Both the position numbers and the translations under genes were made by a program. Source: Phycisphaerales bacterium (GTDB lineage: Bacteria; Planctomycetota; Phycisphaerae; SM23-33; FEN-1343). From it: a stretch of DNA of 64,000 nt. This document shows, piece after piece, positions 3,234 to 27,496 of the stretch; the first letter of the stretch is position 1, and each line of letters opens with the position of its first letter. The notes below the pieces were generated by a model. That model was given only the letters and a program-made list of their open reading frames with translations, was not told the origin of the DNA and did not search any database. The stretch lies in contig PMYD01000101.1 in NCBI GenBank assembly GCA_003171335.1, positions 6,952 to 70,951 of the forward strand. Reading direction: 5' to 3'.

Positions 3234-4030
3234 GCAGCCGCCACGCGGGCAGGAAGTTGCCCCGACGGCCGGAGCGCCGAGACGTGAGCAAGGACATCAC
3301 ATCCATTCTGAACGGCTGGGATTTCGAGCCCGGCAAGATCAGCGTCCGCAAGATCGTCGGCCTGGACAAGCAGCCTAAGATCCAGTTGCGGCTGGACCTG
3401 GGGCTGTTGCAGATGGAGGTGGTCGGCCGGCCCGACGGCCAGCGGCCGCACGGCTGCGAGAGCCTGCTGGACTACCACCGCCAGCGGCTGGAGGGCCGCC
3501 GGGATGCCGATGCCTTCGAGCTGTCGCCGCGCGAGTGCGAGGGCCTGCGGGCCGAGGCGATGATGTACTACCACCGCTACCTGTGCGAGTTCGCTCTGGA
3601 GGAATACGACGCGGTCCTCCGCGACGCGCAGCGCAACCTCGATGTGCTGGAGCTGTGCCGCCGGCACGCCCGCACCGATGCCGACCGCGTGGCCATGGAG
3701 CAGTACCAGCCCTATATCCTCATGATGCACACCCGCGCCAAGGCCATGAGCGCGTTGAAAAACGACGACTTTGCCGCCGCCCGCCACGCCGTGCAGGAGG
3801 GGTTGGCGCGGATGCGCAGCTTCGGCGAGGAGGTCAGCCAACTCGAGGCGATCGAGAACTCGCCGGAGGTGGCCGTGCTGCGCTCGCTGCTGGAGGAGAT
3901 CGACCAGCGCGAGCCTTTAGACCCGATCCGGGCCATCGAGGCCTCCCTCGCCCAGGCGCTGGCCGATGAACGCTATGAAGATGCAGCCAAAATCCGCGAT
4001 CAACTGCGGCTGCTGCGGGGCGGGAAGTGA
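3230..4030 (+). CDS. Hypothetical protein with a C-terminal UVR (UvrB/UvrC-like) motif
   Basis: It is translationally coupled to the lipoprotein gene. The C-terminus reads ERYEDAAKIRDQLRLL, which is typical of the UVR domain. Confidence 0.55.
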   Translation: MSSRHAGRKLPRRPERRDVSKDITSILNGWDFEPGKISVRKIVGLDKQPKIQLRLDLGLLQMEVVGRPDGQRPHGCESLLDYHRQRLEGRRDADAFELSPRECEGLRAEAMMYYHRYLCEFALEEYDAVLRDAQRNLDVLELCRRHARTDADRVAMEQYQPYILMMHTRAKAMSALKNDDFAAARHAVQEGLARMRSFGEEVSQLEAIENSPEVAVLRSLLEEIDQREPLDPIRAIEASLAQALADERYEDAAKIRDQLRLLRGGK

Positions 4031-4147
4031 ACCATCGGTGATTATTGATTTGCGATTGAAGAGGATCAGCCCCTGATCAATTCGTTCCGCTGTCAGGATC
4101 CGGAACCGGTGACTATGGCACATCGTTTCTCTTCCTGCTATCATGCC

Positions 4148-4252
4148 ACCGGTACGCTAGGGGCGCCCATGAGGGCTGAGACGGCCGGCGGCCGGTACCC
4201 TTGGAACCTGATCAGCAACCCGGAACGGGGCTGCGTAGGGAAGCGACCGAAT
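4148..4252 (+). promoter_or_regulatory. TPP riboswitch (THI element) aptamer
   Basis: The conserved THI-box elements are present in order: GGGGCGCCC, GGCUGAGA, a P3 hairpin, UACCC, GAACCUGAUC and GCGUAGGGAA. Confidence 0.85.
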
Positions 4253-4296
4253 GTGACACGTTGCCCGCCGGCCATGCGGCCGGCGGCGAGTTGGAA

Positions 4297-4330
4297 AACG
4301 CCGGCCCCGAGACCGGCGTTTTTGCTTTTG
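4297..4330 (+). terminator. Intrinsic terminator serving as the riboswitch expression platform
   Basis: The stem ACGCCGG/CCGGCGT is followed by UUUUUGCUUUU. It lies 45 nt downstream of the aptamer and 40 nt upstream of the GNAT start. Confidence 0.6.
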
Positions 4331-4371
4331 AAGGCCGCTGCCGGCAGGCGTGAGGAAAGGGAGCCGACGCG

Positions 4372-4911
4372 ATGAGAATCGACGTGGTGCGTGAGCCCGA
4401 TGTGCCGCCGGCCATCGATGCGGCCATCATGCGCCTCCAGCAGCGGGCGTTCCCCAAGACCGAGTCCTTCGCCCGGTCGCGGTACTACACGCATACAGCG
4501 CGGCAGGGCGATTTTCGCGTGCTGGCGTGGCTGGACGAGGCGCCGGTGGGGCAGGTTGTGGTCATGTGGGCCAACGCTCGCGCGGGCGCGCAAAATCTCC
4601 GCCTGGCGGGGCTGGGCAATGTGTGCTCCGACCCCGATCATCGCAAGGAGCACGCGGCCTCGGCCTGCATCGAGCGGGCGCTGGAACTGGCCCGCCAGGA
4701 GGATGGCGATGGCGCGCTACTGTTTTGCGGGGCCAGCCTGGAAAAATTTTACGCCCGGTTCGGCTTTGAGATTGTGTCAAACGAGGTCTTCTTCACGCAC
4801 CCCGACGGCACCATCTTCCGCCGCAACCACCGTGACATCCGCATGGGCCTGATGCTGAAGGACCAGCCCTGGCCGGCGGGGGATCTGTATCTGGATACGG
4901 AAGACTTTTGA
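4372..4911 (+). CDS. GNAT family N-acetyltransferase
   Basis: The protein has the acetyl-CoA binding fold pattern (RLAGLGNV...HRKEHAASACIERALELA) and ends in FYARFGFE. Confidence 0.75.
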   Translation: MRIDVVREPDVPPAIDAAIMRLQQRAFPKTESFARSRYYTHTARQGDFRVLAWLDEAPVGQVVVMWANARAGAQNLRLAGLGNVCSDPDHRKEHAASACIERALELARQEDGDGALLFCGASLEKFYARFGFEIVSNEVFFTHPDGTIFRRNHRDIRMGLMLKDQPWPAGDLYLDTEDF

Positions 4912-4913
4912 GG

Positions 4914-5042
4914 GATTGCAAATTGCCAATTGCAAATTGCCAATTAAACGGCCGGAAGAACGCGCCGCTTGGAACGCGGGTCTTTCCCGCCGTTTCCGGC
5001 CGTTTCTTCAATTTGCAATTTGCAATTTGCAATTCGCAATCC
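4914..5042. repeat. ~130-bp hairpin element with heptad-repeat arms (ATTGCAA/ATTGCCA x4 opposite AATTTGC x4) and an inner GC-rich palindrome (AAACGGCCGGAA...TTCCGGCCGTTT)
   Basis: This is an inverted-repeat structure read directly from the sequence. A second family member lies at 34778-34889. Confidence 0.8.
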
Positions 5043-5083: not shown

Positions 5084-5796
5084 ATGAAGATCTCCCACCC
5101 CATCGCGATCAAAACCCTCAGCCTGCTGGCGGCGTGGGTGCTGCGCCTGTGGCTGGGGACGCTGGAGTTCCGCTTCGCCCTGGATGATCCTGGCCTCAAC
5201 CCGGCACACCTGCGGCGGCGGGGGCTGTACATGTTCTGGCACGAGGCGCTGCTGATGCCCGCCTACACGCACAGCCACCGGGGCTTTACGATTCTTACGA
5301 GTACGCATCGCGATGGCGAACTGATCACGCAGATCGTCCGCATGCTGCGCGGCCGCGCCGTTCGCGGCTCCAGCACGCGCGGCGGTGCGGCGGCCGTCCT
5401 GGGTATGATGCGCCGAGCCCGGACGCAGCACCTGGCCATCACGCCGGATGGCCCGCGCGGGCCGCGAAGGCAGATGCAGGCCGGCGCGATTTACCTGGCC
5501 AGCCGCGGGCGACTGCCGCTCATCCCGCTGGGCATCTCGGTCGCAAGAGCCTGGCGGGTAAGAAGCTGGGACCGCACGATTTTGCCGCGGCCGGGCAGCG
5601 AGTGCTGCTATGTGCTGGGCCGGGCCATCGAGGTGCCGCACGAGGCCGACCGCCAGGAGCTGGAGCGATACCGCCAGCTCGCCCAGCAGGCCCTGGATGA
5701 TGCGCAGGAGCGGGCCGAGCGGCTGGCCGCCGGGCAGGGATCCGAGCCGCGACTGTGGACGTTAGCCCAAGTGAACGCTCCGGCAGGAGAGAAGTC

Positions 5797-5800: not shown

Positions 5801-7131
<1,331 letters not shown>

Positions 7132-7266: not shown

Positions 7267-8298
7267 ATGTCGCCAGCGCGGAGACACGCGGTCTGCTTTG
7301 TGGGCGTTGTAGCCATCCTCTCATCTATGATCCTGCCGGGGCGGCCTTGTGCGGCCGCTGGGGTCGCCGGCATGGACCTGCCGACGGGGGACCTGGATTG
7401 GGCGCTGCGGGATATTATCGATGAGGCGTTCGCACCGGTGCAGTCCACCTCCGACAGCATGCTCGAATTGGCCAAGACAGCCCTGGCGGAAGTTCCCAGC
7501 CTGGCGGCGGCCACAGGCGAGGCCTCGCCCCAGGAAAGCGCCCCCTTCGGCCTGGAGTACACCCCCTGGCGGGAGCGGCGGGGGCCGGCGTATCCCGATG
7601 ACAAGTGGCGCAGCGTGGGCCGCGATTTGCAGGAGTTGCCCGAAACGCTCTGGGATGACACGAAGCACGCCTTCACCGATCCCATCGTACTGGGCGGTTT
7701 CGGCGTGGCCGCGGTGGCCGGCGTGGTGCTGAATCTGCACGTCGACGCCACCATCGCCAGCCGCACGGAGCACGGCAAGCCGCATTTGGAACGGTGGGAG
7801 GACCACCTGGCCAACGACTGGCTGGGCAACCCGGCCGACCATTTCCCCTTGGCGGCGGGGCTCTACACCATCGGGTTGGTCACCGAGGACACCAAGCTGT
7901 ACGAGACCTCCAAGGCCCTGTTCAACGCGCTGACCATCAACGGCGTGACCAACCTGGCGGCCAAGTACGCCGTCAACAATCACAGCCCCGATGGCCACAG
8001 TTACGCCTGGCCCAGCGGCCACACCTCCTCCAGCTTCACCTTCGCCACGGTGCTGGCCGAGTCGTACGGGCCCTGCGTGGGCGTGCCGGCCCTGGCCTTC
8101 GCCACGTTTGTGGGCTACGAGCGTATCGACTCCCGTCGCCACCAGTTCAGCGATGTGATCAGCGGCATGATCATGGGCATCGTCGTGGGGCACAGCGTCG
8201 CCCAGAACCACATGACGCGGATCATGGGCATGGAGGTCGAGCCGACGGTCAGCCCCGAAACGCAGAGCGTGGGCGTTTCGCTGGTCAAGCGGTGGTAA
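7267..8298 (+). CDS. PAP2-superfamily phosphatase, membrane or secreted
   Basis: It has an N-terminal hydrophobic segment. The PAP2 signature motifs PSGH and SRRHQFSD (SRxxxxxHxxxD) are present. Confidence 0.7.
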   Translation: MSPARRHAVCFVGVVAILSSMILPGRPCAAAGVAGMDLPTGDLDWALRDIIDEAFAPVQSTSDSMLELAKTALAEVPSLAAATGEASPQESAPFGLEYTPWRERRGPAYPDDKWRSVGRDLQELPETLWDDTKHAFTDPIVLGGFGVAAVAGVVLNLHVDATIASRTEHGKPHLERWEDHLANDWLGNPADHFPLAAGLYTIGLVTEDTKLYETSKALFNALTINGVTNLAAKYAVNNHSPDGHSYAWPSGHTSSSFTFATVLAESYGPCVGVPALAFATFVGYERIDSRRHQFSDVISGMIMGIVVGHSVAQNHMTRIMGMEVEPTVSPETQSVGVSLVKRW

Positions 8299-8302
8299 GC
8301 GC

Positions 8303-8509
8303 GTGAGTGACTATCGAATCCAGCGTGTGGTTCGCAAGCTGACGGTGGCCCAGGCCGAGCAGGCCGACCGCGAGTTCTGGCGCCGGCAGACGCCCATTGC
8401 CAGGATCGAGGCCGCAACGCTGCTCTGGAATCTCTATTACGGACTGGACGATGAAACTACCCCCCGACCTCCGAGAGTTCTTACAGTTACTCGGCGAAAA
8501 CTCAGTTGA
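8303..8509 (+). CDS. Small hypothetical protein (68 aa, GTG start)
   Basis: The ORF lies directly after the PAP2 stop. It overlaps the next gene in another frame, and its coding status is uncertain. Confidence 0.25.
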   Translation: MSDYRIQRVVRKLTVAQAEQADREFWRRQTPIARIEAATLLWNLYYGLDDETTPRPPRVLTVTRRKLS

Positions 8510-8894
8510 GTACGCCATCGTAGGCGGGTGGGCCGTCTCGCGCCATGGCTACCCCCGATTTACGGGCGACTTGGATATCCTCGTCCGTCCGACAGCGCAA
8601 AACGCTCGCCGCTTGATTGCCGCTTTGGCCGCATTCGGGTTCGCATCCGTCGGCTTAACGGAAACGGATTTTACGAACCCGGGGGTCGTGGTTCAGCTCG
8701 GCGTGCCGCCTGCACGCATTGATCTAATAACCTCGCTGACTGGCGTAAGCACAGACCAGGTATTTGAGCATTGCGTGCAGGACAAGGACGAGGAGCAGGA
8801 AACCCGGCTGTTCTTCATCAGCAAAGAAGACCTGATCGCCAACAAACGTGCCACGGGCCGCCCCCAAGACTTGGCGGACCTCGATCACTTGTGA
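8451..8894 (+). CDS. Putative minimal nucleotidyltransferase-fold protein
   Basis: It has a GG...GDLDILV motif resembling hG[GS]-x-DhD of the Pol-beta nucleotidyltransferase fold. It is a ~148 aa standalone protein. Confidence 0.4.
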   Translation: MKLPPDLREFLQLLGENSVEYAIVGGWAVSRHGYPRFTGDLDILVRPTAQNARRLIAALAAFGFASVGLTETDFTNPGVVVQLGVPPARIDLITSLTGVSTDQVFEHCVQDKDEEQETRLFFISKEDLIANKRATGRPQDLADLDHL

Positions 8895-8943
8895 TTTGAA
8901 AGGTGCTTCGCGGCGCACCAGAGGCAATGCCTTGACGAAGAAA

Positions 8944-8988
8944 CCGATTAACGGATCAACCGATTAACGAATTAACGATTTAACGGAC
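8944..8988. repeat. Tandem TTAACG-containing repeats (CCGATTAACGGAT...CGATTAACGAATTAACGATTTAACGG) immediately upstream of the GH27 gene
   Basis: The repeats can be read directly. The 13-mer CCGATTAACGGAT recurs at 63868-63880. Confidence 0.6.
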
Positions 8989-9000
8989 CAACCACCCCCC

Positions 9001-10290
9001 ATGAGTAACCGCCATATTGCCCCCACGCCTCCTTTGGGCTGGAACAGTTACGACAGCTACGGCTGCGCCATCAACGAGCAGGAATTCCGCGCCACGGTCG
9101 ATGTCATGGCCGAAAAGCTGCTGCCGGCCGGGTATCGCTACGCCTGCATCGACGGCATGTGGGCCTTCGAGCCCGAGGCCATGGGGCCGACCATGTGGAA
9201 GCCCGAGGCGCAGCCGCACATGGATGCGTACGGCCGGCTGGTCCCTTCGCCGCGGCGATTCCCCTCGGCCAAGGAAGGCTCCTTCGCCCCGCTGGCGGAC
9301 TATGTGCACAGCAAGGGCCTGAAGTTCGGCATCCACGTGATGCGCGGGGTGCCGCGCAAGGCCGTCGATCGCCGCCTGCCTGTGCTGGGCACGCGTTTCA
9401 CCACCGAGGACATCGCCGACAAAAACAGCACCTCCGACTGGGACAACACCATGTACGGCCTGAACACGCGCCACGCCGGCGCGCAGGCGTGCTACGACTC
9501 CATCCTGGCCCTGTACGCCCAGTGGGGCGTGGATTTCATCAAGGCCGACGACATGGGCACGCCCTACGCGGCGGCGGAGATCGAGCTTTTCGCCAGCGCC
9601 GTGGAGCGATGCGGCCGACCGATCGTGCTGAGCCTGTCCCCCGGCGTGTGGCTGGATGACATCCTGCGCGCCTGGCCGCACGTGGCCCAGCACTGCCAGA
9701 TGTGGCGGATCACCGCGGACATGTGGGATAGCTGGCCGTGCATCAAGCAGCTCTTCCCGCTGTGCGCCGCCTGGTCCGGCGCCATCGGCGAAAACTCCTG
9801 GCCGGATGCGGACATGCTGCCCTACGGCCGGCTGAGCCTCAAATCGGCCAAGACGCCCGGCGGGCGGCCCACGCGGCTGACGAACGATGAGATTCGCAGC
9901 CATTTCAGCCTGCTGTGCATGTGCCGCAGCCCGCTCCTGATGGGCGGCGACCTGCTGAGCCTGGATGACTTCACGCTGTCGGTGCTGACGGATGCGGAGG
10001 TCCTGGCGGTCAATCAGCACAGCCGGCAAAACCGCATGGTGTTCAGCAACGTCAGCGGGCTGGAGGGCTGGACGGCCCGCATGGACGATGGCGACGTCGT
10101 CGTGGCCTTCTTCAACATGGCCGACACGCCGCAGGAATACACGTCGAAACTGCGCTGGCTGCGGATCGAAGAGGGCCATTACGCCGTGCGCGACCTGTGG
10201 GAGAAGAAAGACCTGCCGCCGATCGAGGAGAGGATTTCAGGGATGTTGGCGCCGCACGCGTGCGTGATGTGTCGATTGAAGAAGATTTAA
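9001..10290 (+). CDS. Glycoside hydrolase family 27-like (alpha-galactosidase/alpha-N-acetylgalactosaminidase-like)
   Basis: The protein reads TPPLGWNSYD near the N-terminus and WGVDFIKAD in the catalytic region, and has the TIM-barrel pattern of GH27. Confidence 0.7.
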   Translation: MSNRHIAPTPPLGWNSYDSYGCAINEQEFRATVDVMAEKLLPAGYRYACIDGMWAFEPEAMGPTMWKPEAQPHMDAYGRLVPSPRRFPSAKEGSFAPLADYVHSKGLKFGIHVMRGVPRKAVDRRLPVLGTRFTTEDIADKNSTSDWDNTMYGLNTRHAGAQACYDSILALYAQWGVDFIKADDMGTPYAAAEIELFASAVERCGRPIVLSLSPGVWLDDILRAWPHVAQHCQMWRITADMWDSWPCIKQLFPLCAAWSGAIGENSWPDADMLPYGRLSLKSAKTPGGRPTRLTNDEIRSHFSLLCMCRSPLLMGGDLLSLDDFTLSVLTDAEVLAVNQHSRQNRMVFSNVSGLEGWTARMDDGDVVVAFFNMADTPQEYTSKLRWLRIEEGHYAVRDLWEKKDLPPIEERISGMLAPHACVMCRLKKI

Positions 10291-15877: not shown

Positions 15878-16033
15878 GGCGGCTATTTCCCTGCCTCTAA
15901 GGACAATACACTACGGCGTTTACCCCGGCAAGTGATGCATCTTGACCCACAGGATTGATGTCTCCCTTCCGGCAAGCCTGCCTTTCGGGAGCCGTGAGCG
16001 ACATTTGTTTCTGGCATGGCCTATGTTGTTGTC

Positions 16034-16222
16034 GTGTAACAGGCCCCGGCTTCAGCCGGGGTGATAGATACGCTGCAGGCACATGAGCCCGTTTCAACGG
16101 GCTTGTATTTGTTGGCTTTAGCCATAGCAGATGCCTCAAGGCACGACCCCAAGCCCGTTGAAACGGGCTGAATCTCTGGGCAGACCGCTTAACCCCGGCT
16201 GAAGCCGGGGCCTGTTACACCA
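16034..16222. repeat. ~190-bp symmetric element: GTGTAACAGG + hairpin CCCCGGCTtcaGCCGGGG + hairpin GCCCGTTtcaACGGGC, then the mirror-image copies
   Basis: The nested inverted repeats can be read directly. They lie in the divergent promoter region upstream of the ThyA-like operon. Confidence 0.7.
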
Positions 16223-16369
16223 CAAGACAACCTCGCCAGAAAATAAGGTCGCTCACCGGGGCCTGTCGGCTCATCGCCTCTGTAGACCGCCAGCCGCCTT
16301 TTGACTATATTGCGGACAACGCGCGAGGTTCCGGCGCCAGACAAGACTCCCGGGTGCGGAAGGAAGGGC

Positions 16370-17212
16370 ATGATCACTGTCCATATCGTCGAGCCGACGT
16401 TGCCCATGGCCTGGGAGAAGGCGGTCATCGCCTGCTGGGAGACGGGTGAGTCGTTCCGCACCGAGTACGACCGACCCGGCGACCCGGCCAGCCGCGATGT
16501 GACCGTGATGATCCGCGTGACACAGCCGTTCTCCGAGCCGCGGATTCACCGCGCCTTCCCCGGCGGCCTGGATGACCTGGAGAAGTACCGTAGCGAGGTG
16601 CTTTTCGGCGTGCACGATCACTGGGTGGACCCGGCCGCCGGCAAATGGGAGTACACGTATCACCAGCGGCTGTTTGCCTACGAGGTGCCCGGCGTGGGCC
16701 AGTTCGACCAGATCGCCGGCGTGGTAGCCAAGCTCAAATCCGCCGGCCACACGCGCCGCGCGCAGGCGGTCACCTGGCAGGTGTGGAACGACATGAACAT
16801 CGCCGATCCCTCCTGCCTCCAGCGGCTGTGGTTCCGTATTTCCGGCGGCCACCTGCACATGAACGTGCACATGCGTTCCAACGACGCCTACAAGGCGGCA
16901 TTCATGAACATGTACGCCTTCACCGAGCTTCAGCGCGAGGTGGCCGGCCAGGTGGGCGTCGAGGTGGGCGAGTACGTGCATATCGCCGACTCGTTCCACA
17001 TTTACGGCAGCTATTTCAAGGATTTCGAAGGTTTTCTCAGCACGGTCCGCACGCGCAGCGCCGCCGAGCGGGTCTTCACCAGCGACTTCGCCCGCGATTT
17101 CTTCATTGAGGGCTGCGATGTGCTGCTGGCCGAGAACGACATGCCCGAGGCGAAAAAGGCGCGCGTGCGACAGCGCAAAGAACAGTTGCAGGGGAAAGGA
17201 GCAACTGTATGA
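16370..17212 (+). CDS. Divergent thymidylate-synthase (ThyA) family pyrimidine C5-methylase or hydroxymethylase
   Basis: The catalytic Cys is in PSCLQ (compare ThyA PCH). The RS.D motif (HMRSNDAY), the D.H.Y motif (ADSFHIYGSY) and SRRA..W-like TRRAQAVTW are present. Confidence 0.75.
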   Translation: MITVHIVEPTLPMAWEKAVIACWETGESFRTEYDRPGDPASRDVTVMIRVTQPFSEPRIHRAFPGGLDDLEKYRSEVLFGVHDHWVDPAAGKWEYTYHQRLFAYEVPGVGQFDQIAGVVAKLKSAGHTRRAQAVTWQVWNDMNIADPSCLQRLWFRISGGHLHMNVHMRSNDAYKAAFMNMYAFTELQREVAGQVGVEVGEYVHIADSFHIYGSYFKDFEGFLSTVRTRSAAERVFTSDFARDFFIEGCDVLLAENDMPEAKKARVRQRKEQLQGKGATV

Positions 17213-18018
17213 AATCGATGGCGGGGATCGGTCTAGCCCAGGTGCAGGCCGTGTACGATGGGGCCGAAGGCCGGCTGTGGGAATTGATCATGGGGGAGCA
17301 GATTCACATCGGCGGCTTCGCCTCGTCCATGGATCTGGCGAAGAAGGCCTCCATCTCCGCCGGCAGCCGCGGAGTGGATCTGTGCTGCTGCCTGGGCGCC
17401 GGCATGCGGTTCCTCGTTCGTTTCTGCGGCGTGGCCGCCATGCAGGGCGTGGATGCCACGCCCACCGTCGTGAACCTCGGCCGCCAGCGCGTGGGAGCCG
17501 AGGGGCTGGCCGACCGCATTCAATTCATCCAGTCCGATGCCTGCCGCACGGGCCTGCCGGCCGCGGCGGCCGATTTCGTCTGGGGCGAGGATGCCTGGTG
17601 CTACGTGGTCGATAAGCCCGCCCTCATCGCCGAGGCGGCCAGGCTCATCAAGCCCGGCGGCACGATCGCCTTCACCGACTGGGTGGAAGGCCCTAAGCCC
17701 ATGAGCGATGCGGACGCGGCGCGATATCTGGCCTTCATGAAGTTCCCCAACGTGCTGAGCCTGGGCGAGTACAGCGACCTGCTGAAGCGCAGCGGCTGCC
17801 AGGTGGTTTGCGCCGAGGATACCGGTCGTTTCGCCGCCGCGGTCGATCTGTACCTGGACATGCTGAACCGCCAGTTGACGTACGATGCGCTGAAGATCAT
17901 CGGCTTTGACATGCCGCTCATGCAGGCCATGGGCGGGGAAATGGAGTTCCTCCGGCAACTCGCGCACGAGGGCAAGATTTCCCAGGGCCTGTTCGTCGCC
18001 CGCAAGAAGGTTTTTTAG
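17209..18018 (+). CDS. Class I SAM-dependent methyltransferase
   Basis: Motif I reads VDLCCCLGAGMRF. The start overlaps the stop of the upstream gene (ATGA). Confidence 0.8.
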   Translation: MKSMAGIGLAQVQAVYDGAEGRLWELIMGEQIHIGGFASSMDLAKKASISAGSRGVDLCCCLGAGMRFLVRFCGVAAMQGVDATPTVVNLGRQRVGAEGLADRIQFIQSDACRTGLPAAAADFVWGEDAWCYVVDKPALIAEAARLIKPGGTIAFTDWVEGPKPMSDADAARYLAFMKFPNVLSLGEYSDLLKRSGCQVVCAEDTGRFAAAVDLYLDMLNRQLTYDALKIIGFDMPLMQAMGGEMEFLRQLAHEGKISQGLFVARKKVF

Positions 18019-18042
18019 TAGTCAAGGACGGCCGGCCCGCCT

Positions 18043-19044
18043 ATGAAAACCGTCGCCTACAGTTGCCCGTTCGTGCCGCCGGAGTGGATCGCGGCGCATG
18101 GGCTGCGCCCGCGGCTGCTGGTGCCCGCCTCGTTAGGCACCGGTGCCGAGAGCGGGCCGACGGCGGGCCTGTGCGCCTTCGCCCGTGCGGCGGCGCAGGC
18201 GGCGGTGGAGGATGGGGCCATCGACGCGTACGTGGCCACATCGCTGTGCGATCAGCGCCGGCGGGCCACGGAGCTGGCCGCACGACACAGCAAGAAACCG
18301 GTCTTCATGCTGCACGTGCCGGCGGCCTGCCGCGCGCCAGGCGCCGAGGCGATGTACATCGCCGAACTTCAGCGGCTGGGCCGGTTCCTGGTTCGCCTGG
18401 GCGGAAAAGAGCCCTCGCGGGATGAGTTGATCCTGGCAATGCGCCGCTACAGCGTGGCCCGCGCTTCGCTGGCCGCCACATCGGCGACGATACCCGCCCG
18501 CCAGGCGGCCGAGGCGTACTGGAACCTGTGCGAAAACGGGCCCGCGGGCGATGCCCCGCCCTGGCTGTGGGCAGTGCAGCGTGAAGGCAAACCGAAGCCC
18601 CCGGGCGTGCCGATTCTTCTTTTGGGCGGGCCGTTGACGCGCGAGGGCCTGGTCGTGCTCGACTGCATCGAGCAGGCCGGCGGGTGCGTAGTCGTCAACG
18701 CGACGGAGAACGGGCCGGCCACGGCGGCCGCGCCGCTACCGCCCGTCCACACCAAGGCCTCCGGGGCGCAATTCCTGATGCGGACGTACTATCGCCACAT
18801 TCCCCACCCCTTCAGCCGGCCCAACGACTGGCTGTATGAATGGCTGGCGGCAACGCTGACAAAGTGTCACGCCCGCGGCATCTTGTTCATCCGGCATGTC
18901 TGGTGCGACCTGTGGCACGCGGAACTGGCGCGGCTGAAAGCCTGCTCGCCCGTGCCCGTGGTGGATCTGGACCTGGCCGCCGGCGACGATACGGCCGCAC
19001 GGGTCGGCGGCAGGGTGCAGGCGCTGATGGAGATGCTGGCATGA
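18043..19044 (+). CDS. 2-hydroxyacyl-CoA dehydratase / benzoyl-CoA reductase family subunit (HgdA/BcrB-like)
   Basis: It has the N-terminal KTVAYSCPFVPPEWIAAHG family signature and multiple Cys residues. Confidence 0.75.
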   Translation: MKTVAYSCPFVPPEWIAAHGLRPRLLVPASLGTGAESGPTAGLCAFARAAAQAAVEDGAIDAYVATSLCDQRRRATELAARHSKKPVFMLHVPAACRAPGAEAMYIAELQRLGRFLVRLGGKEPSRDELILAMRRYSVARASLAATSATIPARQAAEAYWNLCENGPAGDAPPWLWAVQREGKPKPPGVPILLLGGPLTREGLVVLDCIEQAGGCVVVNATENGPATAAAPLPPVHTKASGAQFLMRTYYRHIPHPFSRPNDWLYEWLAATLTKCHARGILFIRHVWCDLWHAELARLKACSPVPVVDLDLAAGDDTAARVGGRVQALMEMLA

Positions 19045-20423
19045 GCCCCGCGCCTGCCCAAATCACCCTGGGCCAGTGGGACGAGCGCTACGCCGCCTTG
19101 CGGGCCGAGGGCCTTCGGGAGCCCTCCTACGGCGGGCCGCTGTCGCGGCATCTGGCCGATGGCGACCGCCGGCTGAGCTGCCTTCGTTTCGACAATTCGC
19201 CGGCGGCGCTGCGGCTGTGGAATTTCCTGCTGAGCGAGGAGGACCGGCTGTTCGCCGCCCGCCGAGAGGGTAAGACCATCATCGGCACGATGAAGGACCT
19301 CGGTACAGTCCCCATTATGGCCTACGCCCTGGAAGACACCGTCGCCTTCTACCCCGACGGCGCCTGGTGGCAGCCCTGCGTGATGGAGCTGAGCGACGGC
19401 CTGCTGGCGCGGGCCGACGCGATGGGGATCGACGAGTCCTTCTGCCCCGTGCGGGCCATGCTGGGGGCCTTTGAAACCGGCGAGCATTTTCCCGCCCCTG
19501 ACCTGCTGACGTGCAGTGTCGGGGCGACCTGCGATGATTTTTCCGCCATCGCGCAGCGGCTTTCCGCCACGGGTTTTCCCATCCTCTGGTGGGAGATTCC
19601 GCCGCGCCGGCCGTGCGACCCGGGCGAAGCGGCCATCCGCCTGCCGGGCGGCCGGCGGGTGTCACGCAGCCAGGTGGCATTCGTGACCGGCCAGATGCAG
19701 CATCTGGCCTGGGCCATCGGCCAAACCTGCGGGAAGCGCCTGCGGCGCCGGCATCTGGCCCAGAGCATTCACCAGGCCAATCGCGTGCGCGGGTTGCTGG
19801 GCGAGCTGCGCGAGGAGGCGTATCGCGCGGCGGCCGCGCCGCTGGGGGCGATGGAGATGCTGGTGGCCGAGATGCTGGCGATCCATTATTGTTCGGATCG
19901 TGACGAAACAGTGGCCGTGCTGGAGGATTTGCTGGCGGAGGTCCGCCGCCGCGTGGCCGCCGGGACAGGCGTTCTGGAGGCCGCCGCCGCGCGGGTGTAC
20001 TGGGTGAACCCCGTGGCCGACCTGCGGGCGATGAACCTGCTGGAAGAGTGCGGCGGCCGCGTGTGTGGCACGGATTACATGTTCGGCCACGCGCTGGCGA
20101 GAATTCCGACGAACGTGCCGCCGCTGGAGGCTTTGGCGCGCATGGCACTGGCCGACCCGATGGTTGGCCCGGCCGGGCAGCGGGCCGAGGATATCTGCGC
20201 CGACATGGCCGCCGCGGGCGCCGAGGCGGCGGTGATCTCGCGCATCCCCGGCGCGAGCCACTGCGCCACTGAGGGAGCGGTCATCGCCGAGGAAATTCGC
20301 GGGCGACTGGCGCTGCCCGTCGTAGAAATCGAAGTGCCGCCGGTGATCGACGCCGTGATGGCCAGCCTGAAGACGCGGCTATCGGCACTGGTGGAGCGGG
20401 TGAAGGAGAGGCGCGAGCGATGA
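19041..20423 (+). CDS. 2-hydroxyacyl-CoA dehydratase / benzoyl-CoA reductase family subunit (HgdB/BcrC-like)
   Basis: The GKTIIGTMKDLGTVP...FCPVRAM family pattern is present. The start overlaps the upstream stop. Confidence 0.75.
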   Translation: MSPAPAQITLGQWDERYAALRAEGLREPSYGGPLSRHLADGDRRLSCLRFDNSPAALRLWNFLLSEEDRLFAARREGKTIIGTMKDLGTVPIMAYALEDTVAFYPDGAWWQPCVMELSDGLLARADAMGIDESFCPVRAMLGAFETGEHFPAPDLLTCSVGATCDDFSAIAQRLSATGFPILWWEIPPRRPCDPGEAAIRLPGGRRVSRSQVAFVTGQMQHLAWAIGQTCGKRLRRRHLAQSIHQANRVRGLLGELREEAYRAAAAPLGAMEMLVAEMLAIHYCSDRDETVAVLEDLLAEVRRRVAAGTGVLEAAAARVYWVNPVADLRAMNLLEECGGRVCGTDYMFGHALARIPTNVPPLEALARMALADPMVGPAGQRAEDICADMAAAGAEAAVISRIPGASHCATEGAVIAEEIRGRLALPVVEIEVPPVIDAVMASLKTRLSALVERVKERRER

Positions 20424-21214
20424 TGTTTGCGGGTGTGGATGCCGGATCGCGGGCGATCAAGATCGTCCTTTTGGGGACGGAGGGCCGCATCGCCGCGCGC
20501 GGCCAGGTCGATCAAGCCGTGCGGCAGGGCGAACTGGCCGAGTCGCTGTACGAGGCGCTGCTGGACGAGGCCGGCGCAGCGCGCAAAGACGTCGCCGGCG
20601 TCGTGGCCACCGGCTATGCCCGCCAGGGCGTGACCTTTGCCACGCGGACGGTGACGGAAATCACCTGCCACGCGCGCGGCGTGCATCACCTGCTGCCTGA
20701 GGCGCGCTGCGTGGTGGAAGTGGGGGGGCAGGACTCCAAGCTGCTGCACCTGGAGGCCGATGGCGCCGTCCGCGATTTTTCCATGAATGATCGTTGCGCC
20801 GCCGGCACCGGCCGCTTTCTGGAGATGCTGGCCGCTCGCCTGGAGGTGCCGCTGGCGGACCTCGGCGCCCTGGCGAGCCAGAGCCAGGCGGCCGCGCCCA
20901 TCAGCAGCATGTGCGTGGTCTTCGCCGAGACGGAGATCATCGGTCTTTTGGCCGCCGGGCGAAGCTGCCCGGACATCGTCGCCGGCGTGCAGTCGGCGAT
21001 TGCCGCACGCGTGGCCGCCATGGCCGGCCGCACGCTGGCCGGCCCGGTCGTCTTTACCGGCGGGGTGGCGCTGGTGGGGGGCATGGCGGGCGCGATGGAG
21101 ACCACGCTCAAGTGTGCCGTGACCATCGCCCCCGACCCCCAGTTCACCGGCGCGCTGGGTGCGGCGATTCTGGCCCGCGCGGCAGCCCGCCGAGCTGAGG
21201 GGGGCAAGCCGTGA
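20420..21214 (+). CDS. CoA-substrate-specific enzyme activase (HgdC/BadF/BcrAD ATPase family)
   Basis: It has the ASKHA-fold activase pattern (MFAGVDAGSRAIKIVLL...CAAGTGRFLE). Confidence 0.85.
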   Translation: MMFAGVDAGSRAIKIVLLGTEGRIAARGQVDQAVRQGELAESLYEALLDEAGAARKDVAGVVATGYARQGVTFATRTVTEITCHARGVHHLLPEARCVVEVGGQDSKLLHLEADGAVRDFSMNDRCAAGTGRFLEMLAARLEVPLADLGALASQSQAAAPISSMCVVFAETEIIGLLAAGRSCPDIVAGVQSAIAARVAAMAGRTLAGPVVFTGGVALVGGMAGAMETTLKCAVTIAPDPQFTGALGAAILARAAARRAEGGKP

Positions 21215-21843
21215 ATCACATCAATGGCGACTCGGCCATCAAGGCCGTGATCTTCGACCTGGGCGGCGTGCTCATTTCCATCCATCACGAGCGGGCGATT
21301 CGCACCTGGTCGCGGTGCTGCGGGGCCAGCGAGCAGGAGATCCTCGACCTCTACCGACGCGACACGCTGTACAAACTCGTGGAAAGCGGGCGGATGCCCA
21401 TCGAGGAGTATCACCGCCACGTGGTTAAGCAGCTCGGGTGCGAAATGTCGCTGGAGGCGTTCGTCGAGGGCTGGAACCTGATGATCGGTGAGCCGCTAGC
21501 CGGCATCGAATCCCTGCTGGACAAGCTCGCCCCGAAGGTTCGGCTGCTGCTCTTAAGCAACACAAATGCCCCGCACGCAGAGGTCTTCCGCACCGCGCTG
21601 GCCGGCTTCCTGGGCCGCTTCGAGCGTCTCTTCTACTCGCACGAGATGGCCACCCGCAAACCCGAGCCGGCCATCTATCGCCAGGTGCTGGAGTACCTGG
21701 AGTTGCCCGGCGCACAGGTGGCTTTTGTCGACGACCGGGCCGAGAACATCGCCGGCGCCGAAGTCGTCGGCATGCGCGGTGTGCTGAGCAAGACGATGGA
21801 CCAGACGGCGGCGGGGTTGGCCGAGTTCGGGCTGGGGGTCTAG
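21211..21843 (+). CDS. HAD-superfamily hydrolase (subfamily IA)
   Basis: HAD motif I reads VIFDLGGVL. The downstream HAD motifs are present and the start overlaps the upstream stop. Confidence 0.8.
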   Translation: MNHINGDSAIKAVIFDLGGVLISIHHERAIRTWSRCCGASEQEILDLYRRDTLYKLVESGRMPIEEYHRHVVKQLGCEMSLEAFVEGWNLMIGEPLAGIESLLDKLAPKVRLLLLSNTNAPHAEVFRTALAGFLGRFERLFYSHEMATRKPEPAIYRQVLEYLELPGAQVAFVDDRAENIAGAEVVGMRGVLSKTMDQTAAGLAEFGLGV

Positions 21844-21864
21844 AAAGCCTGACAAACAAAAACC

Positions 21865-21954
21865 GGGTGCCGTGACTGCGTCGTTTGCAGCCACGCCGAA
21901 TGGGATGATCCCTTCCCAGACGCGTGGTTGCACAAAGACGCAACCACGGCACCC
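21865..21954. repeat. ~90-bp double-hairpin element with GGGTGCCGTG terminal inverted repeats
   Basis: The structure is GGGTGCCGTGACTGCG..GCAGCCACG ... CGTGGTTGCAcaaagacGCAACCACGGCACCC. A homologous element lies at 61457-61546. Confidence 0.7.
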
Positions 21955-22017
21955 GACCTAGAGTCTACAGCTCTCGTCTTCTTGGGGACACACCTTGTGT
22001 CCCGATTATTTGCTCCC

Positions 22018-24562: not shown

Positions 24563-27424
24563 TTACAGGGCGGGCACCGTAATGGTGCTCGCGTTGATGG
24601 TCACCGAACCGTCTGAGTTTGAACCGCCCAGAAGCCGGCCCTCCACCACGGACCCGGTGTTAACCGTGATCGTCACTGCGGCAAGGATATTGCCCATGAA
24701 GATCGTGGTCGTATCGAGGGTCGCTGAAGTCCCGACCTGCCAGAAGATATTGCCGGCCTTGGCGCCGCCGGCCAGGACCACCTGGGCGCCGGGCCCCGTG
24801 GTGAGTGTGGACCCCATTTTGAAGATGAAGATCGCATTGGGGTCGCCCTGGGCGTCAAGGGTCACGATGTTGCCGGGGCCTGCCCCGGAGATCAATACCG
24901 AGGTCGAGTTCGTGTATAGGCCGGGGGTGAAGGTCAGCCCGCCCATGTTGCCGGGCAGACTTACTGAACTAACTGAACGGCTTACCGCATCGTTATACGC
25001 GGCCAACAGATCGGCCTGGGCCGTTATGATCGCCTGATCATCGACGTGGATGGTCCCGTTGACCTGCGCCGGCGGGATTCCCTGTGCACTTCCCGGGTTC
25101 AGCCCGACATCTCCGTTGATCTGGGTAGGACCAGTGCTAGTGATCGAAGCGGTAGCCATCACCGCGAAGGCGCCGGCCGACCCAAGGTTGATGGTCGCTT
25201 GCTCCATCTGCGTTCCGGTCGTAAATGTCCACACCTTGTCGCTTGCCAGCGGATTGCCGGCCAGGTCCTTTACCCCGCTGATCCCGCCGGCGATCGTAGC
25301 GGTAAATGTGGTGTCGGTGGCGAGATTGCTCGATGGTGTAAAGGTTGCAATCTTGCTTAGTGCATCATAGTTCACCGTCCCCGTCACAGGGGTATTGCCG
25401 GGCCCTGTCACCGTGAAGTTAGCGGTCGTGATGGTCAGCGGGTCCATCGACTCGCTGAAGGTCCCGGCGACCGTCTTATTGATGGCCACGTCGGTTTGGA
25501 GATCGTCGGGGTTGGTGGAGGTCACTGTGGGGGCGGTGGCGTCCGAGGTCGCCCCAGTTGTAAACGTCCAGGTGAAGTTGCTGGCCAGTGGGTTCCCCGC
25601 CAGGTCCTTGGCCCCGGTGGTTACGGTGGCCGTAAACGTGGTGTCGGGCGCGAGGGCGCTTGTGGGCGTGAAGGCCATTGTGGCGCCCACGCAAGTCACA
25701 GTGCCGATAACAGGAACCAGGCCGGGCGCTGTCACCGTCACGCTCGCTGCGGTGATCGTCAGCGGGTCCATGGCTTCGCTGAAGGTCGCCGCGACCTTCT
25801 GGTTCAGAGCGACGTCCGTTGCGTTATCTGCTGGGTCCGTGGAAAGCACTGTGGGGACGGTGGCGTCCGAAGTCGCCCCGGTCATGAAGCTCCAGACGAA
25901 GTTGTCAGCCAGTGGATTCCCAGCCAGGTCCTCGGCGCCGGTGGTGATCGTCACGGTGAAGAGGGTATTGGGCGCGAGGGTGCTTGTGGGCGTGAAGGCC
26001 ATTGTGGCGCCCACGCAAGTCACAGTCCCTATAACAGGAACCAAGCCGGGTCCTGTCACCGTCACGCTCGCTGCGGTGATCGTCAGCGGGTCCATCGCCT
26101 CGCTGAAGATGGCCGCGATCTTCTTATTGCGGGCCACTCCCGTGGCGCCGTTCAGAGGGTCTGTGGAACTCACTGTGGGGGCGGTGATGTCCGTGGTCTC
26201 CCCGGTAGTAAACGTCCAGGTGAAGTTGCTGGCCAAGGCGTTGCCCGCCAAGTCCTCGGCCCCGGTGGTTACGGTGGCCGTAAAGGTGGTGTCGGTCGCA
26301 AGGCTGCTGGTGGGTGTGAACGTGGCTGTGGTGCCGACGTACGTCACCGTGCCTATCACCGGCGTGGACTCCGGCCCGGTCACCGTGAAGCTCGTCGTGG
26401 TGATGGTCAGCGGGTCCATCGGCTCGCTGAAGGTCGCCGCGATCTTCTGGTTCAGAGCGACGTCCGTTGCATTACTTGCTGGGGCCGTGAAACTCACCGT
26501 GGGGGCGGTGGTATCCGGGATCGGGGTGTTCGATTCGAAATTCACGATCCGAAATTGCGAGTTCCTGATGTACGTGCTGGCGTCGAAGTTGAGGAGTGTG
26601 TCGTACCCCCGCCCGCCGTCGAAACGCACTCTATTGGAAAATACAGCGCGGGTGCCGGTCTGGCCGGTCACGCCGAACTGGAGAGTGTCGTCGCCGGCGC
26701 CCAACCAGATCCATACAGGCCCGTAGAACAGGGTGGGCGGGCTTAGGGGGCCGCCGTGGGATCCGATCTGAACGATGTCCGCACCCTGTCCGGTATACAG
26801 TCGCACCGCGCCGTGGAAGATCGAGTTGTCGACCGTGAAGATATCGGACCACCTCCCACCGACGATTTTGGTGTTCCGCTGGACTTCCACCGATCGCAGG
26901 GCGACATTCTCCACGCCAGAGCCAGGCCCGATCCTCAGATCCTTGCCGACCGTGGTATTGGCGATCGTGGTGGTGGTACTATTGTGGATATTAAGACTTC
27001 TCGCGACCTGCACGTTGTTGAGCGTGAGGATATTGGCACCCTTCTGGCCGTCGACCGAAACGTTGCCCGGAAGGCTCAGGCTGCTCATGGTCACGCTGTC
27101 GGCCCCGGCACCCATTCGGATGTCGACGCCGCGCGTTACGCCGCTCAGGATGACCGGATTGGCCTGGTTGTTGATGGCTGTGCCGCTGGCCCCGGAGATG
27201 CGCACCTGGTCGGCGTTCAGCCCGCTTTGATCCAGGACAATGACGTTCGCCGCGGCGTCACCCCGGATATTCAGGTTTCCATGCATTACCGAAGCAAGCA
27301 CGGTCCCGGATAGCAATACCCGGGGCTCGAGGGCTTCAATGGACGGACACGCCGGAGCCTTCTCGCGTTCGATGTCATGCTTTGAAGATATGCTTCGCCC
27401 CAGATGTCGCAGTGCGCGTTTCAT
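24563..27424 (-). CDS. Large secreted adhesin-like protein: N-terminal beta-helix region, 5-6 tandem Ig-like (Big_5/SbsA-like) domains and a C-terminal ice-binding-like (DUF3494) domain
   Basis: The signal peptide is MKRALRHLG... The ~100-aa repeats read TAPTV..TDP..ATDVA.N..I...FSE.MDP.TIT. The C-terminus reads INLGSAGAFAVMA...NGDVGLNPG. The full ORF extends to 27493 from a TTG start. Confidence 0.8.
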   Translation of the reverse strand: MKRALRHLGRSISSKHDIEREKAPACPSIEALEPRVLLSGTVLASVMHGNLNIRGDAAANVIVLDQSGLNADQVRISGASGTAINNQANPVILSGVTRGVDIRMGAGADSVTMSSLSLPGNVSVDGQKGANILTLNNVQVARSLNIHNSTTTTIANTTVGKDLRIGPGSGVENVALRSVEVQRNTKIVGGRWSDIFTVDNSIFHGAVRLYTGQGADIVQIGSHGGPLSPPTLFYGPVWIWLGAGDDTLQFGVTGQTGTRAVFSNRVRFDGGRGYDTLLNFDASTYIRNSQFRIVNFESNTPIPDTTAPTVSFTAPASNATDVALNQKIAATFSEPMDPLTITTTSFTVTGPESTPVIGTVTYVGTTATFTPTSSLATDTTFTATVTTGAEDLAGNALASNFTWTFTTGETTDITAPTVSSTDPLNGATGVARNKKIAAIFSEAMDPLTITAASVTVTGPGLVPVIGTVTCVGATMAFTPTSTLAPNTLFTVTITTGAEDLAGNPLADNFVWSFMTGATSDATVPTVLSTDPADNATDVALNQKVAATFSEAMDPLTITAASVTVTAPGLVPVIGTVTCVGATMAFTPTSALAPDTTFTATVTTGAKDLAGNPLASNFTWTFTTGATSDATAPTVTSTNPDDLQTDVAINKTVAGTFSESMDPLTITTANFTVTGPGNTPVTGTVNYDALSKIATFTPSSNLATDTTFTATIAGGISGVKDLAGNPLASDKVWTFTTGTQMEQATINLGSAGAFAVMATASITSTGPTQINGDVGLNPGSAQGIPPAQVNGTIHVDDQAIITAQADLLAAYNDAVSRSVSSVSLPGNMGGLTFTPGLYTNSTSVLISGAGPGNIVTLDAQGDPNAIFIFKMGSTLTTGPGAQVVLAGGAKAGNIFWQVGTSATLDTTTIFMGNILAAVTITVNTGSVVEGRLLGGSNSDGSVTINASTITVPAL

Positions 27425-27496
27425 GGGAAACTCCTTTAAAAGGTTATAAGGAACAACACTTTGGGCTTCCCCACGAACGGTGGGCGCGCCCAAAGT

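Follow-up and report, generated by a model that had tools for sequence, protein, structure and literature searches.

A probably composite operon in a Phycisphaerales bacterium joins a ThyA-family gene to a separately conserved methyltransferase, HGD-D and activase cassette

Do six genes that are arranged as one operon also serve one pathway? This question is raised by a run of co-directional genes on the + strand (16370..21843) in a 64,000-nucleotide stretch of the Phycisphaerales bacterium assembly GCA_003171335.1 (contig PMYD01000101.1, positions 6,952 to 70,951), which is referred to here as the window. In order, the genes encode a ThyA-family protein, a class I S-adenosylmethionine (SAM)-dependent methyltransferase, a small and a large subunit of the HGD-D superfamily (HgdS and HgdL), an ATP-dependent activase and a phosphatase of the HAD-IA type. 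A sequence-only reading had tentatively assigned the ThyA-family enzyme, the methyltransferase, the radical enzyme and the phosphatase to a single pathway, perhaps for a modified pyrimidine. Our comparison suggests a different interpretation: with a probability of roughly 70%, the operon is composite, i.e. it consists of a housekeeping thymidylate synthase gene and a separately conserved cassette, and the six genes do not constitute one pathway.

About 250 related loci were compared in all. Relatives of gene 4 were collected by scanning one genome per species, which resulted in 401 genomes; the best 80 of these loci were analyzed, and neighbor counts around gene 4 orthologs refer to those of the best 80 out of 401 that provide enough flanking sequence. 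A metagenome scan with the ThyA alignment found more than 555 relatives of gene 1, and the best 80 of these loci (58-77% identity) were examined; downstream sequence extends over at least 1 kb in 49 of them and over at least 3 kb in 30. Domains were assigned according to Pfam gathering thresholds and the curated equivalog cut-offs of NCBIfam. For genes 1 and 4, AlphaFold2 (AF2) models were compared with known folds using Foldseek.

The six open reading frames (ORFs) are located at 16370-17212 (gene 1, ThyA family, 280 amino acids), 17209-18018 (gene 2, methyltransferase, 269 amino acids), 18043-19044 (gene 3, HgdS, 333 amino acids), 19041-20423 (gene 4, HgdL, 460 amino acids), 20420-21214 (gene 5, activase, 264 amino acids) and 21211-21843 (gene 6, HAD phosphatase, 210 amino acids). 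The ORFs and the Pfam and NCBIfam assignments agree with the earlier description of six tightly coupled, co-directional genes with these domains. That description also had all junctions overlapping or abutting, four of them through ATGA. Read directly, an ATGA overlap is present at 17209, 19041 and 20420, the overlap at 21211 is GTGA, and genes 2 and 3 are spaced by 24 nucleotides; so overlaps account for four of the five junctions.

Homologs of gene 4 number in the thousands at 62-70% identity, and next to its orthologs one finds the small HGD-D subunit in 66 of 67 loci, the methyltransferase in 56 of 60 and the activase in 73 of 76. ThyA accompanies them in one out of 52 loci and the HAD phosphatase in one out of 68, and the single case is the same both times: L010, a close relative of the window that is represented by the same contig as L001. 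These counts indicate that genes 2-5 are an independently conserved cassette, to which ThyA and the HAD phosphatase are lineage-specific neighbors. Genes 2-5 form one conserved unit; it is carried by Phycisphaerae, Sedimentisphaerales, Lentisphaerae, Armatimonadota, Sumerlaeota and Aminicenantes-like metagenome-assembled genomes. Besides the window, just two close relatives have the complete six-gene arrangement, namely L169 (ThyA 92% identical to the window copy) and L001/L010 (83%). All three share the same flanks, with a VanZ-like gene upstream, divergent in the window, and a beta-helix gene downstream, which is convergent there.

The same separation is visible from the side of gene 1. For ThyA orthologs that are 58-78% identical, the other five genes are nearby in none of 83 other loci. 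On three long contigs (L003, L004, L171; ThyA 75-78% identical) the gene has only unrelated neighbors. Likewise, a methyltransferase, HGD-D, activase or HAD homolog is near ThyA in none of the best 80 metagenome loci. Stand-alone copies show no recurrent neighbor and no pairing with folA; the sole recurring cluster is an antisense shadow ORF. A natural experiment is provided by L170 (ThyA 84% identical), in which ThyA is intact and preceded by the VanZ-like gene as in the window. In this locus the methyltransferase is reduced to a remnant of 58 amino acids (5345-5512), with an in-frame deletion joining residues 1-16 to 227-266; HgdS, HgdL and the HAD gene are gone and the activase is kept, and the 7.3-kb contig ends soon after it. 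Since the core of the cassette was lost and ThyA was kept, ThyA is separable from the cassette. Furthermore, the mean identity between ThyA of the operon lineage and stand-alone orthologs is 74.2%, compared with 75.7% among the stand-alone copies themselves, and the operon lineage has only three conservative lineage-specific substitutions, none of them catalytic. With divergence not raised and only conservative changes, there is no sign of recruitment to a new function. Hence, ThyA is independent of the cassette. The sequence-only reading had stated that a neighborhood not conserved elsewhere would weaken its single pathway, and the check turns out against it for both ThyA and HAD: ThyA is found without the cassette genes in 83 of 83 loci, the cassette without ThyA in 51 of 52 and without HAD in 67 of 68, and L170 points the same way.

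Gene 6 was added to the cassette in this lineage only. Beside L010, the one species-genome locus among 68 in which a HAD gene adjoins the cassette, it is present in L169. The protein matches PF00702 and the HAD-IA model TIGR01509 (50.6 bits vs 29.4), with motif I FDLGGV at residue 15. Its best named match is YihX, an alpha-D-glucose-1-phosphate phosphatase (8PNO, 2B0C), which has the motif I DLG(G/N)V in common with it, but the score of 92 bits lies well below the equivalog cut-off of 295. On the pyrimidine 5'-nucleotidase models TIGR01993, NF006976 and TIGR02254 it reaches 41.4, 25.7 and 24.8 bits, for which the cut-offs are 142.9, 183 and 159.9 bits.

Gene 1 itself is probably the lineage's own housekeeping thymidylate synthase; it belongs to a Phycisphaerae-wide clade that is nearest to the methanogen-type ThyA. 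It matches PF00303 (62.1 bits vs a threshold of 24.3), and its start codon ATG at 16370, with GGAAGGAAGG 4 nucleotides upstream, agrees with the N-termini of its homologs. The best family model is the methanogen-type thymidylate synthase TIGR03283 (127.7 bits, E = 3.9e-37, residues 8-216). The motifs that had been called intact are so: the PSC cysteine and the RS.D and D.H.Y residues align to E. coli ThyA. In particular, R129, R130, C149 (PSC), R169, S170 and D172 correspond to E. coli R126, R127, C146, R166, S167 and D169, and Y97, N180, H210 and Y212 to Y94, N177, H207 and Y209; the motif reads R169-S170-N171-D172. The catalytic Cys and the Arg, Ser, Asp, Asn, His and Tyr that bind deoxyuridine monophosphate (dUMP) are thus shared with TIGR03283 and canonical ThyA, and these catalytic and ligand positions are invariant across 23 homologs. 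Unlike those enzymes, gene 1 scores below the cut-offs, has a C-terminal extension of about 60 residues and belongs to a bacterial (Phycisphaerae) clade. Asn180, at the base-specificity position 177 of E. coli, is invariant in the family, and the Asp of the hydroxymethylase type is not present. In hydroxymethylases of deoxycytidine or cytidine monophosphate (dCMP, CMP; T4 gp42 and MilA type), Asp replaces Asn at this position of ThyA. Thousands of homologs at about 75% identity occur in Phycisphaerae and other Planctomycetota. We found no literature on MJ0757, on an archaeal-type ThyA of planctomycetes or on the biochemistry of the gene 1 clade. Because the dUMP ligands and Asn177 are kept, TIGR03283 is the best model and the distribution resembles that of a core gene, we presume that gene 1 is a true thymidylate synthase.

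A group of observations weighs against this assignment and against the composite operon. The score of gene 1 lies under the equivalog cut-off of TIGR03283 (127.7 vs 174.55 bits), and the bacterial thymidylate synthase models (TIGR03284/NF0024xx) give 48-60 bits against cut-offs of 108-405. The first 70 residues or so do not align to canonical ThyA. In Foldseek, MilA, the phage enzyme AfhB and ThyA are all found at E ~1e-10 to 1e-11 with TM-scores of 0.5-0.6, and the substrate loops of the AF2 model have pLDDT values below 50; a fold search therefore does not separate ThyA from MilA and AfhB. The junction of genes 1 and 2 is an ATGA overlap in the window and in L169, and the genes are 20 nucleotides apart in L001; because of this overlap or close spacing they are almost certainly co-expressed in the three genomes of the lineage, which leaves room for a lineage-specific functional link between ThyA and the cassette. 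Finally, ThyA and HAD, the two lineage-specific flankers, could plausibly both act on nucleotides.

Part of these observations would be explained if the gene 1 family were not thymidylate synthases at all, but lone enzymes that modify C5 of a pyrimidine, e.g. hydroxymethylases. The scores below every thymidylate synthase equivalog cut-off, the unaligned N-terminus, the replacement of E. coli W80 by His and the presence of MilA and AfhB among the top structural matches would all fit. However, the base-specificity position holds Asn and not Asp, the residues equivalent to Y94, R126/R127, C146, R166/S167/D169, H207 and Y209 are kept, and the best model is a methanogen-type thymidylate synthase (E = 4e-37). 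As the family is also highly conserved, very broadly distributed and present in a range of stand-alone settings, which one would expect of a core gene, we regard a function other than thymidylate synthesis as quite improbable.

The other part bears on a lineage-limited version of the single pathway, in which the cassette would have recruited ThyA and HAD once its double-cubane and selenium genes were lost, and all six genes would cooperate in C5 (hydroxy)methylation by ThyA, radical reduction or dehydration, methylation and dephosphorylation to yield a modified pyrimidine nucleoside. The window, L169 and L001 have the gene order and overlapping junctions in common, ThyA and HAD flank the cassette in this lineage only, the HAD protein is weakly similar to the pyrimidine 5'-nucleotidase TIGR01993 (41 bits), and by fold gene 1 lies no farther from CMP/dCMP-modifying enzymes than from ThyA. 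Yet the ThyA of this lineage is an ordinary ortholog of the stand-alone gene, with no extra divergence or active-site change, and nothing points to a second, paralogous copy that would be reserved for a pathway. In L170, ThyA is intact although the methyltransferase, HgdS and HgdL are not; Asn at position 177 fits dUMP as the normal substrate, and the HAD protein is of the YihX (glucose-1-phosphatase) type and far under the nucleotidase cut-offs. A six-gene pathway confined to this lineage is accordingly very unlikely in our judgment. Still less probable is a variant in which the cassette, having lost its double-cubane and selenium partners (see below), was rewired and coupled to ThyA and HAD for a radical-modified pyrimidine nucleotide or nucleoside; if true, HgdAB-type chemistry would for the first time be known to act on a nucleotide. 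The composite operon remains the explanation that we prefer, and the question shifts to what the cassette itself encodes.

Gene 2 is assigned to Methyltransf_11 and Methyltransf_25 (PF08241/PF13649) with 52.1 and 45.1 bits (thresholds 21.2 and 27). Among solved structures it comes closest to phosphoethanolamine and sarcosine/dimethylglycine N-methyltransferases (5WP4/5WP5, 2O57; E = 2e-15 to 2e-12), with which it shares the class I fold and the class of small-molecule substrates; it differs from them in its low similarity and in six family-specific conserved Cys, namely C59-61 (CCC in motif I), C112, C131 and C197. An assignment to ArsM (NF008823) was rejected: the score is 27.1 bits vs 263, and no ArsM is among the PDB matches at E<=0.001.

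Both HGD-D subunits match PF06050 along their whole length, HgdS with 101.8 bits and HgdL with 117.4 (threshold 28.4), and their pairing in 66 of 67 loci suggests a heterodimer. Across some 70-80 orthologs, the conserved Cys are C8, C44, C69 and C288 in HgdS and C113, C135, C158, C164, C284, C337, C342 and C408 in HgdL; according to profile alignments, four and about five of the seven ligand positions of double-cubane proteins are kept. Because conserved Cys occupy these positions, HgdS and HgdL both likely bind Fe-S. A search of solved structures with the sequence of gene 3 gave no match at E<=0.01. The small subunit evolves much faster than its partners: between the window and L001 it is 48% identical, whereas ThyA, the methyltransferase and the large subunit reach 71-83%; between the window and L169 it is 67% identical, compared with 83-92% for the same three. 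Sequence matches of gene 4 in the PDB are restricted to the double-cubane cluster protein (DCCP), and only weakly so (E ~1e-5). The AF2 model of gene 4 (pLDDT 85, pTM 0.88) confirms the HGD-D fold that had been expected, and is about equally near to DCCP (6ENO), HadB (3O3M), MbdON (9G87) and BzdNO (8S02), with 13-18% identity. Gene 4 is a member of the HGD-D superfamily that stands outside every characterized branch.

Gene 5 encodes an electron-transfer activase of the HgdC/BcrAD type (PF01869, 183 bits; TIGR00241, 238.7 bits vs a cut-off of 125.4). Both Cys motifs of such activases, NDRC126AAGTG and C165VVFAE, are present, and we take C126 and C165 to be the ligands of the bridging [4Fe-4S] cluster, as in HgdC.

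Three known systems are comparable to the cassette. The nearest, by sequence and by fold of gene 4, is DCCP with its reductase DCCP-R from Carboxydothermus hydrogenoformans (6ENO, 7YYL; NF040772), which likewise combines an HgdC-type ATPase with an HGD-D protein and has no CoA-activating partner. DCCP, however, is homodimeric and has a 7-Cys [8Fe-9S] motif (as given by Haft and Gwadz, bioRxiv 10.1101/2022.07.06.499078), whereas here there are two different subunits with four and about five of these positions and extra conserved Cys. With 48.9 and 46.4 bits on NF040772 (cut-off 350) and an incomplete seven-Cys motif, genes 3 and 4 are not double-cubane reductases. HadBC/HadI, HgdAB/HgdC and FldBC/FldI resemble genes 3, 4 and 5 in their unequal alpha and beta HGD-D subunits and single activase gene, and HadB and the gene 4 model can be superposed with TM-scores of 0.73/0.83 and a root-mean-square deviation of 3.4 Å. 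In contrast to these 2-hydroxyacyl-coenzyme A (CoA) dehydratases, identity is 13-15%, there is no equivalog match and no CoA transferase, and the constant partner is a SAM methyltransferase. The class I benzoyl-CoA reductases (BzdNOPQ, MbdONPQ, BcrABCD) have the HGD-D fold (8S02, 9G87) and ATP-driven low-potential electron transfer in common with the cassette; they differ in having two distinct ATPase subunits and aryl-CoA substrates, while here there is one activase gene, which scores 134-144 bits on the Bcr/Bzd ATPase-subunit models against cut-offs of 313-578.

These likenesses might lead one to see in genes 3-5 a conventional 2-hydroxyacyl-CoA dehydratase or class I benzoyl-CoA reductase whose CoA-activating enzyme is encoded elsewhere. 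Homologs are so annotated in the source databases, TIGR00241 is named acyl-CoA dehydratase activase, both subunits belong to PF06050 and the superposition on HadB is good. However, neither subunit matches an NCBIfam dehydratase or reductase equivalog at E<=0.01, identity to solved members is 13-18% with a model that is equidistant from DCCP, Had and Bzd/Mbd, and the single activase gene does not correspond to the paired ATPases of the reductases. The earlier statement that a CoA ligase or transferase partner is lacking stands after the wider comparison: none is encoded in the window operon or in the Pfam-annotated flanks of L001, L006, L007 and L008, and none recurs among the identifiable neighbor families of the best 80 of 401 genome loci, in which the methyltransferase is the constant partner. 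An ordinary CoA-dependent enzyme is therefore highly improbable, and the lack of an associated CoA ligase or transferase makes it probable that the substrate is something other than an acyl-CoA.

The methyltransferase/small HGD-D/large HGD-D/activase cassette is a distinct, uncharacterized branch of ATP-driven Fe-S radical enzymes, given that it has no CoA partner and that we found no curated family or paper on it. Neither the present gene combination nor a combination of SelD, 2-hydroxyacyl-CoA dehydratase and methyltransferase is described in the literature that we found, in line with the earlier remark that no known pathway unites these parts.

In other genomes the cassette is usually longer. 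Its order there is [DUF3034] - methyltransferase - third HGD-D - small HGD-D - large HGD-D - activase - SelD-AhpD fusion, with selA and selB a few kilobases away. In these loci the third HGD-D gene encodes a genuine double-cubane reductase (NF040772, 420 bits vs 350, with the complete 7-Cys motif), and the SelD part of the fusion qualifies as a genuine selenide, water dikinase (TIGR00476, 364 bits vs 125). The fusion lies directly downstream of the activase and is present in 43 of 62 loci (e.g. L007, 12264-13871). SelD or SelA is nearby in 31 of 35 loci with the double-cubane gene and in none of three without it; the selenium genes thus track the double-cubane gene and not the HgdS/HgdL pair. 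This pattern matches the co-occurrence of double-cubane proteins with SelD in 955 of 970 cases, which was left unexplained (Haft and Gwadz, bioRxiv 10.1101/2022.07.06.499078). A tblastn search of the 64-kb window found no SelD, SelA or third HGD-D gene, and in the window, L169 and L001 no SelD, SelA or double-cubane gene is near the cassette. Since these partners are missing nearby, the window holds a reduced version of the cassette. Among other loci without the double-cubane gene (L049, L074, L006), the neighbors give no functional hint: a helicase, a photolyase, a chloride channel and cytochromes.

Some further features of the fuller loci were observed. The SelD-AhpD fusion carries an AhpD/CMD-like CxxC domain at its C-terminus and a Cys-rich N-terminal extension; the SelD fusions described in 2008 in the Global Ocean Sampling (GOS) paper are Ndh-SelD and NifS-SelD, and SelD-AhpD is not among them (PMC2398784). 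The double-cubane reductase of the relatives has a Cys-rich N-terminal extension (MxKCC...DPCxPP...C), and in three loci an in-frame TGA is located at a Cys position of this extension, just upstream of ~7800 in L032, ~7700 in L034 and ~7700 in L046 (locus coordinates). Some double-cubane proteins of the cassette may consequently be unrecognized selenoproteins. Upstream of the cassette, a lipoprotein-like protein of ~420 amino acids, a protein of ~172 amino acids and DUF3034 recur in 19 loci each (in L007 at 3682-4929, 5159-5683 and 5984-6907); the first two have no Pfam or NCBIfam family match. Downstream, a Fer4_5 (NapH-like) membrane protein recurs in 14 loci. What we take to be an ABC transporter of the NitT/TauT-like type, a label read from the sequence and unconfirmed by any tool, is near the cassette in about six loci.

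The selenium genes suggest another function, in which the cassette would handle a selenium or other metalloid compound, by reduction or methylation of Se or As or by the supply of selenide to SelD, and the window copy would be a remnant. The flanking SelD-AhpD fusion, selA and selB of the relatives, the in-frame TGA codons of the double-cubane gene and its general association with SelD speak for such a role, as do the six conserved Cys of the methyltransferase and its weak matches to ArsM-type selenoprotein families. Against it, SelD and SelA follow the double-cubane gene and not HgdS/HgdL, the window, L169 and L001 have none of these genes near the cassette, and the nearest solved relatives of the methyltransferase are small-amine N-methyltransferases and not ArsM. 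In addition, no in-frame TGA, i.e. no conserved selenocysteine codon, was found in the orthologs of the methyltransferase, HgdS, HgdL or the activase across 88 loci. We consider a selenium or metalloid role unlikely, and the case for it is weaker when it is applied to the window copy.

Returning to the composite operon, we propose the following model, in which we infer the thymidylate synthase activity, the flow of electrons, the kind of reaction and what sort of substrate it acts on. In a small lineage, gene 1 would have come to lie directly upstream of the four-gene cassette and to be co-translated with it. By analogy with related systems, a dimer of the activase would hydrolyze ATP and thereby drive an electron of low potential out of the [4Fe-4S] cluster that bridges it and into the Cys-ligated Fe-S cluster or clusters of HgdS/HgdL. 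By the same analogy, a small substrate, which is probably not a CoA ester, would then undergo radical reduction or dehydration on HgdS/HgdL. The methyltransferase could modify the substrate or product of HgdS/HgdL, and the YihX-like HAD protein may dephosphorylate a phosphorylated substrate or product.

Between gene 1 and the divergently oriented VanZ-like gene lies a nested imperfect palindrome of 260 bp (15994..16256) with three concentric inverted-repeat pairs, their arms being at 15994-16015/16235-16256, 16029-16062/16192-16225 and 16086-16105/16150-16169; the two inner pairs are 34 nucleotides at 97% and 20 nucleotides at 100% complementarity. Within the window this hairpin motif is confined to the palindrome (four matches, i.e. 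two sites on both strands, vs 0.06 expected by chance). An Rfam search of the palindrome and the operon region gave nothing beyond one sub-threshold chance match. The 190-bp symmetric element that had been placed in the promoter region of the operon is hence real, but it is not conserved: it occurs in none of 171 related loci, including the closest relative L169, whose ThyA is 92% identical. Being absent from the related loci, the palindrome does not belong to any conserved regulation of the operon; a local insertion at a variable site is likelier than a role as operon regulator. The space between the VanZ-like gene and ThyA varies elsewhere, too: at the same position L001 has four inserted genes (7494-9923), two of them ORFs for N6/N4 DNA methyltransferases, and L169 contains neither the palindrome nor the inserted genes.

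A sigma-70-like promoter match, TAGACC-17-TATATT (16283..16311, + strand), is located 59 nucleotides 5' of the gene 1 start; with one site vs 0.7 expected in shuffles it is weak and a match to the consensus only. On the other side, between gene 6 and the convergent beta-helix gene, an inverted repeat (21864-21885/21934-21955, + strand) and a terminator-like hairpin (21985-22003, + strand) probably mark the end of the transcription unit (21864..22003). Further downstream, on the - strand (24563-27493), the window encodes a secreted protein of 976 amino acids with about five tandem immunoglobulin (Ig)-like repeats of ~95 amino acids each (motif '...TAPTV.ST.P..GATDVA.N..I.A.FSE.MDP.TIT...'); this stretch is lower in guanine-cytosine (GC) content, 0.59 vs 0.65-0.70.

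For the biology of the family, the comparative evidence makes ketyl-radical chemistry on a ThyA-modified nucleotide unlikely, by which a costly wrong lead is avoided. At the same time it draws attention to a cassette that is shared, with identities of 60-80%, by at least 401 species genomes from anaerobic Planctomycetota and further phyla. In its fuller form, the cassette offers a concrete locus for the unexplained link between double-cubane proteins and selenium that was reported by Haft and Gwadz. The window, in turn, represents a natural minimal cassette without neighboring selenium genes, which makes it convenient for biochemistry.

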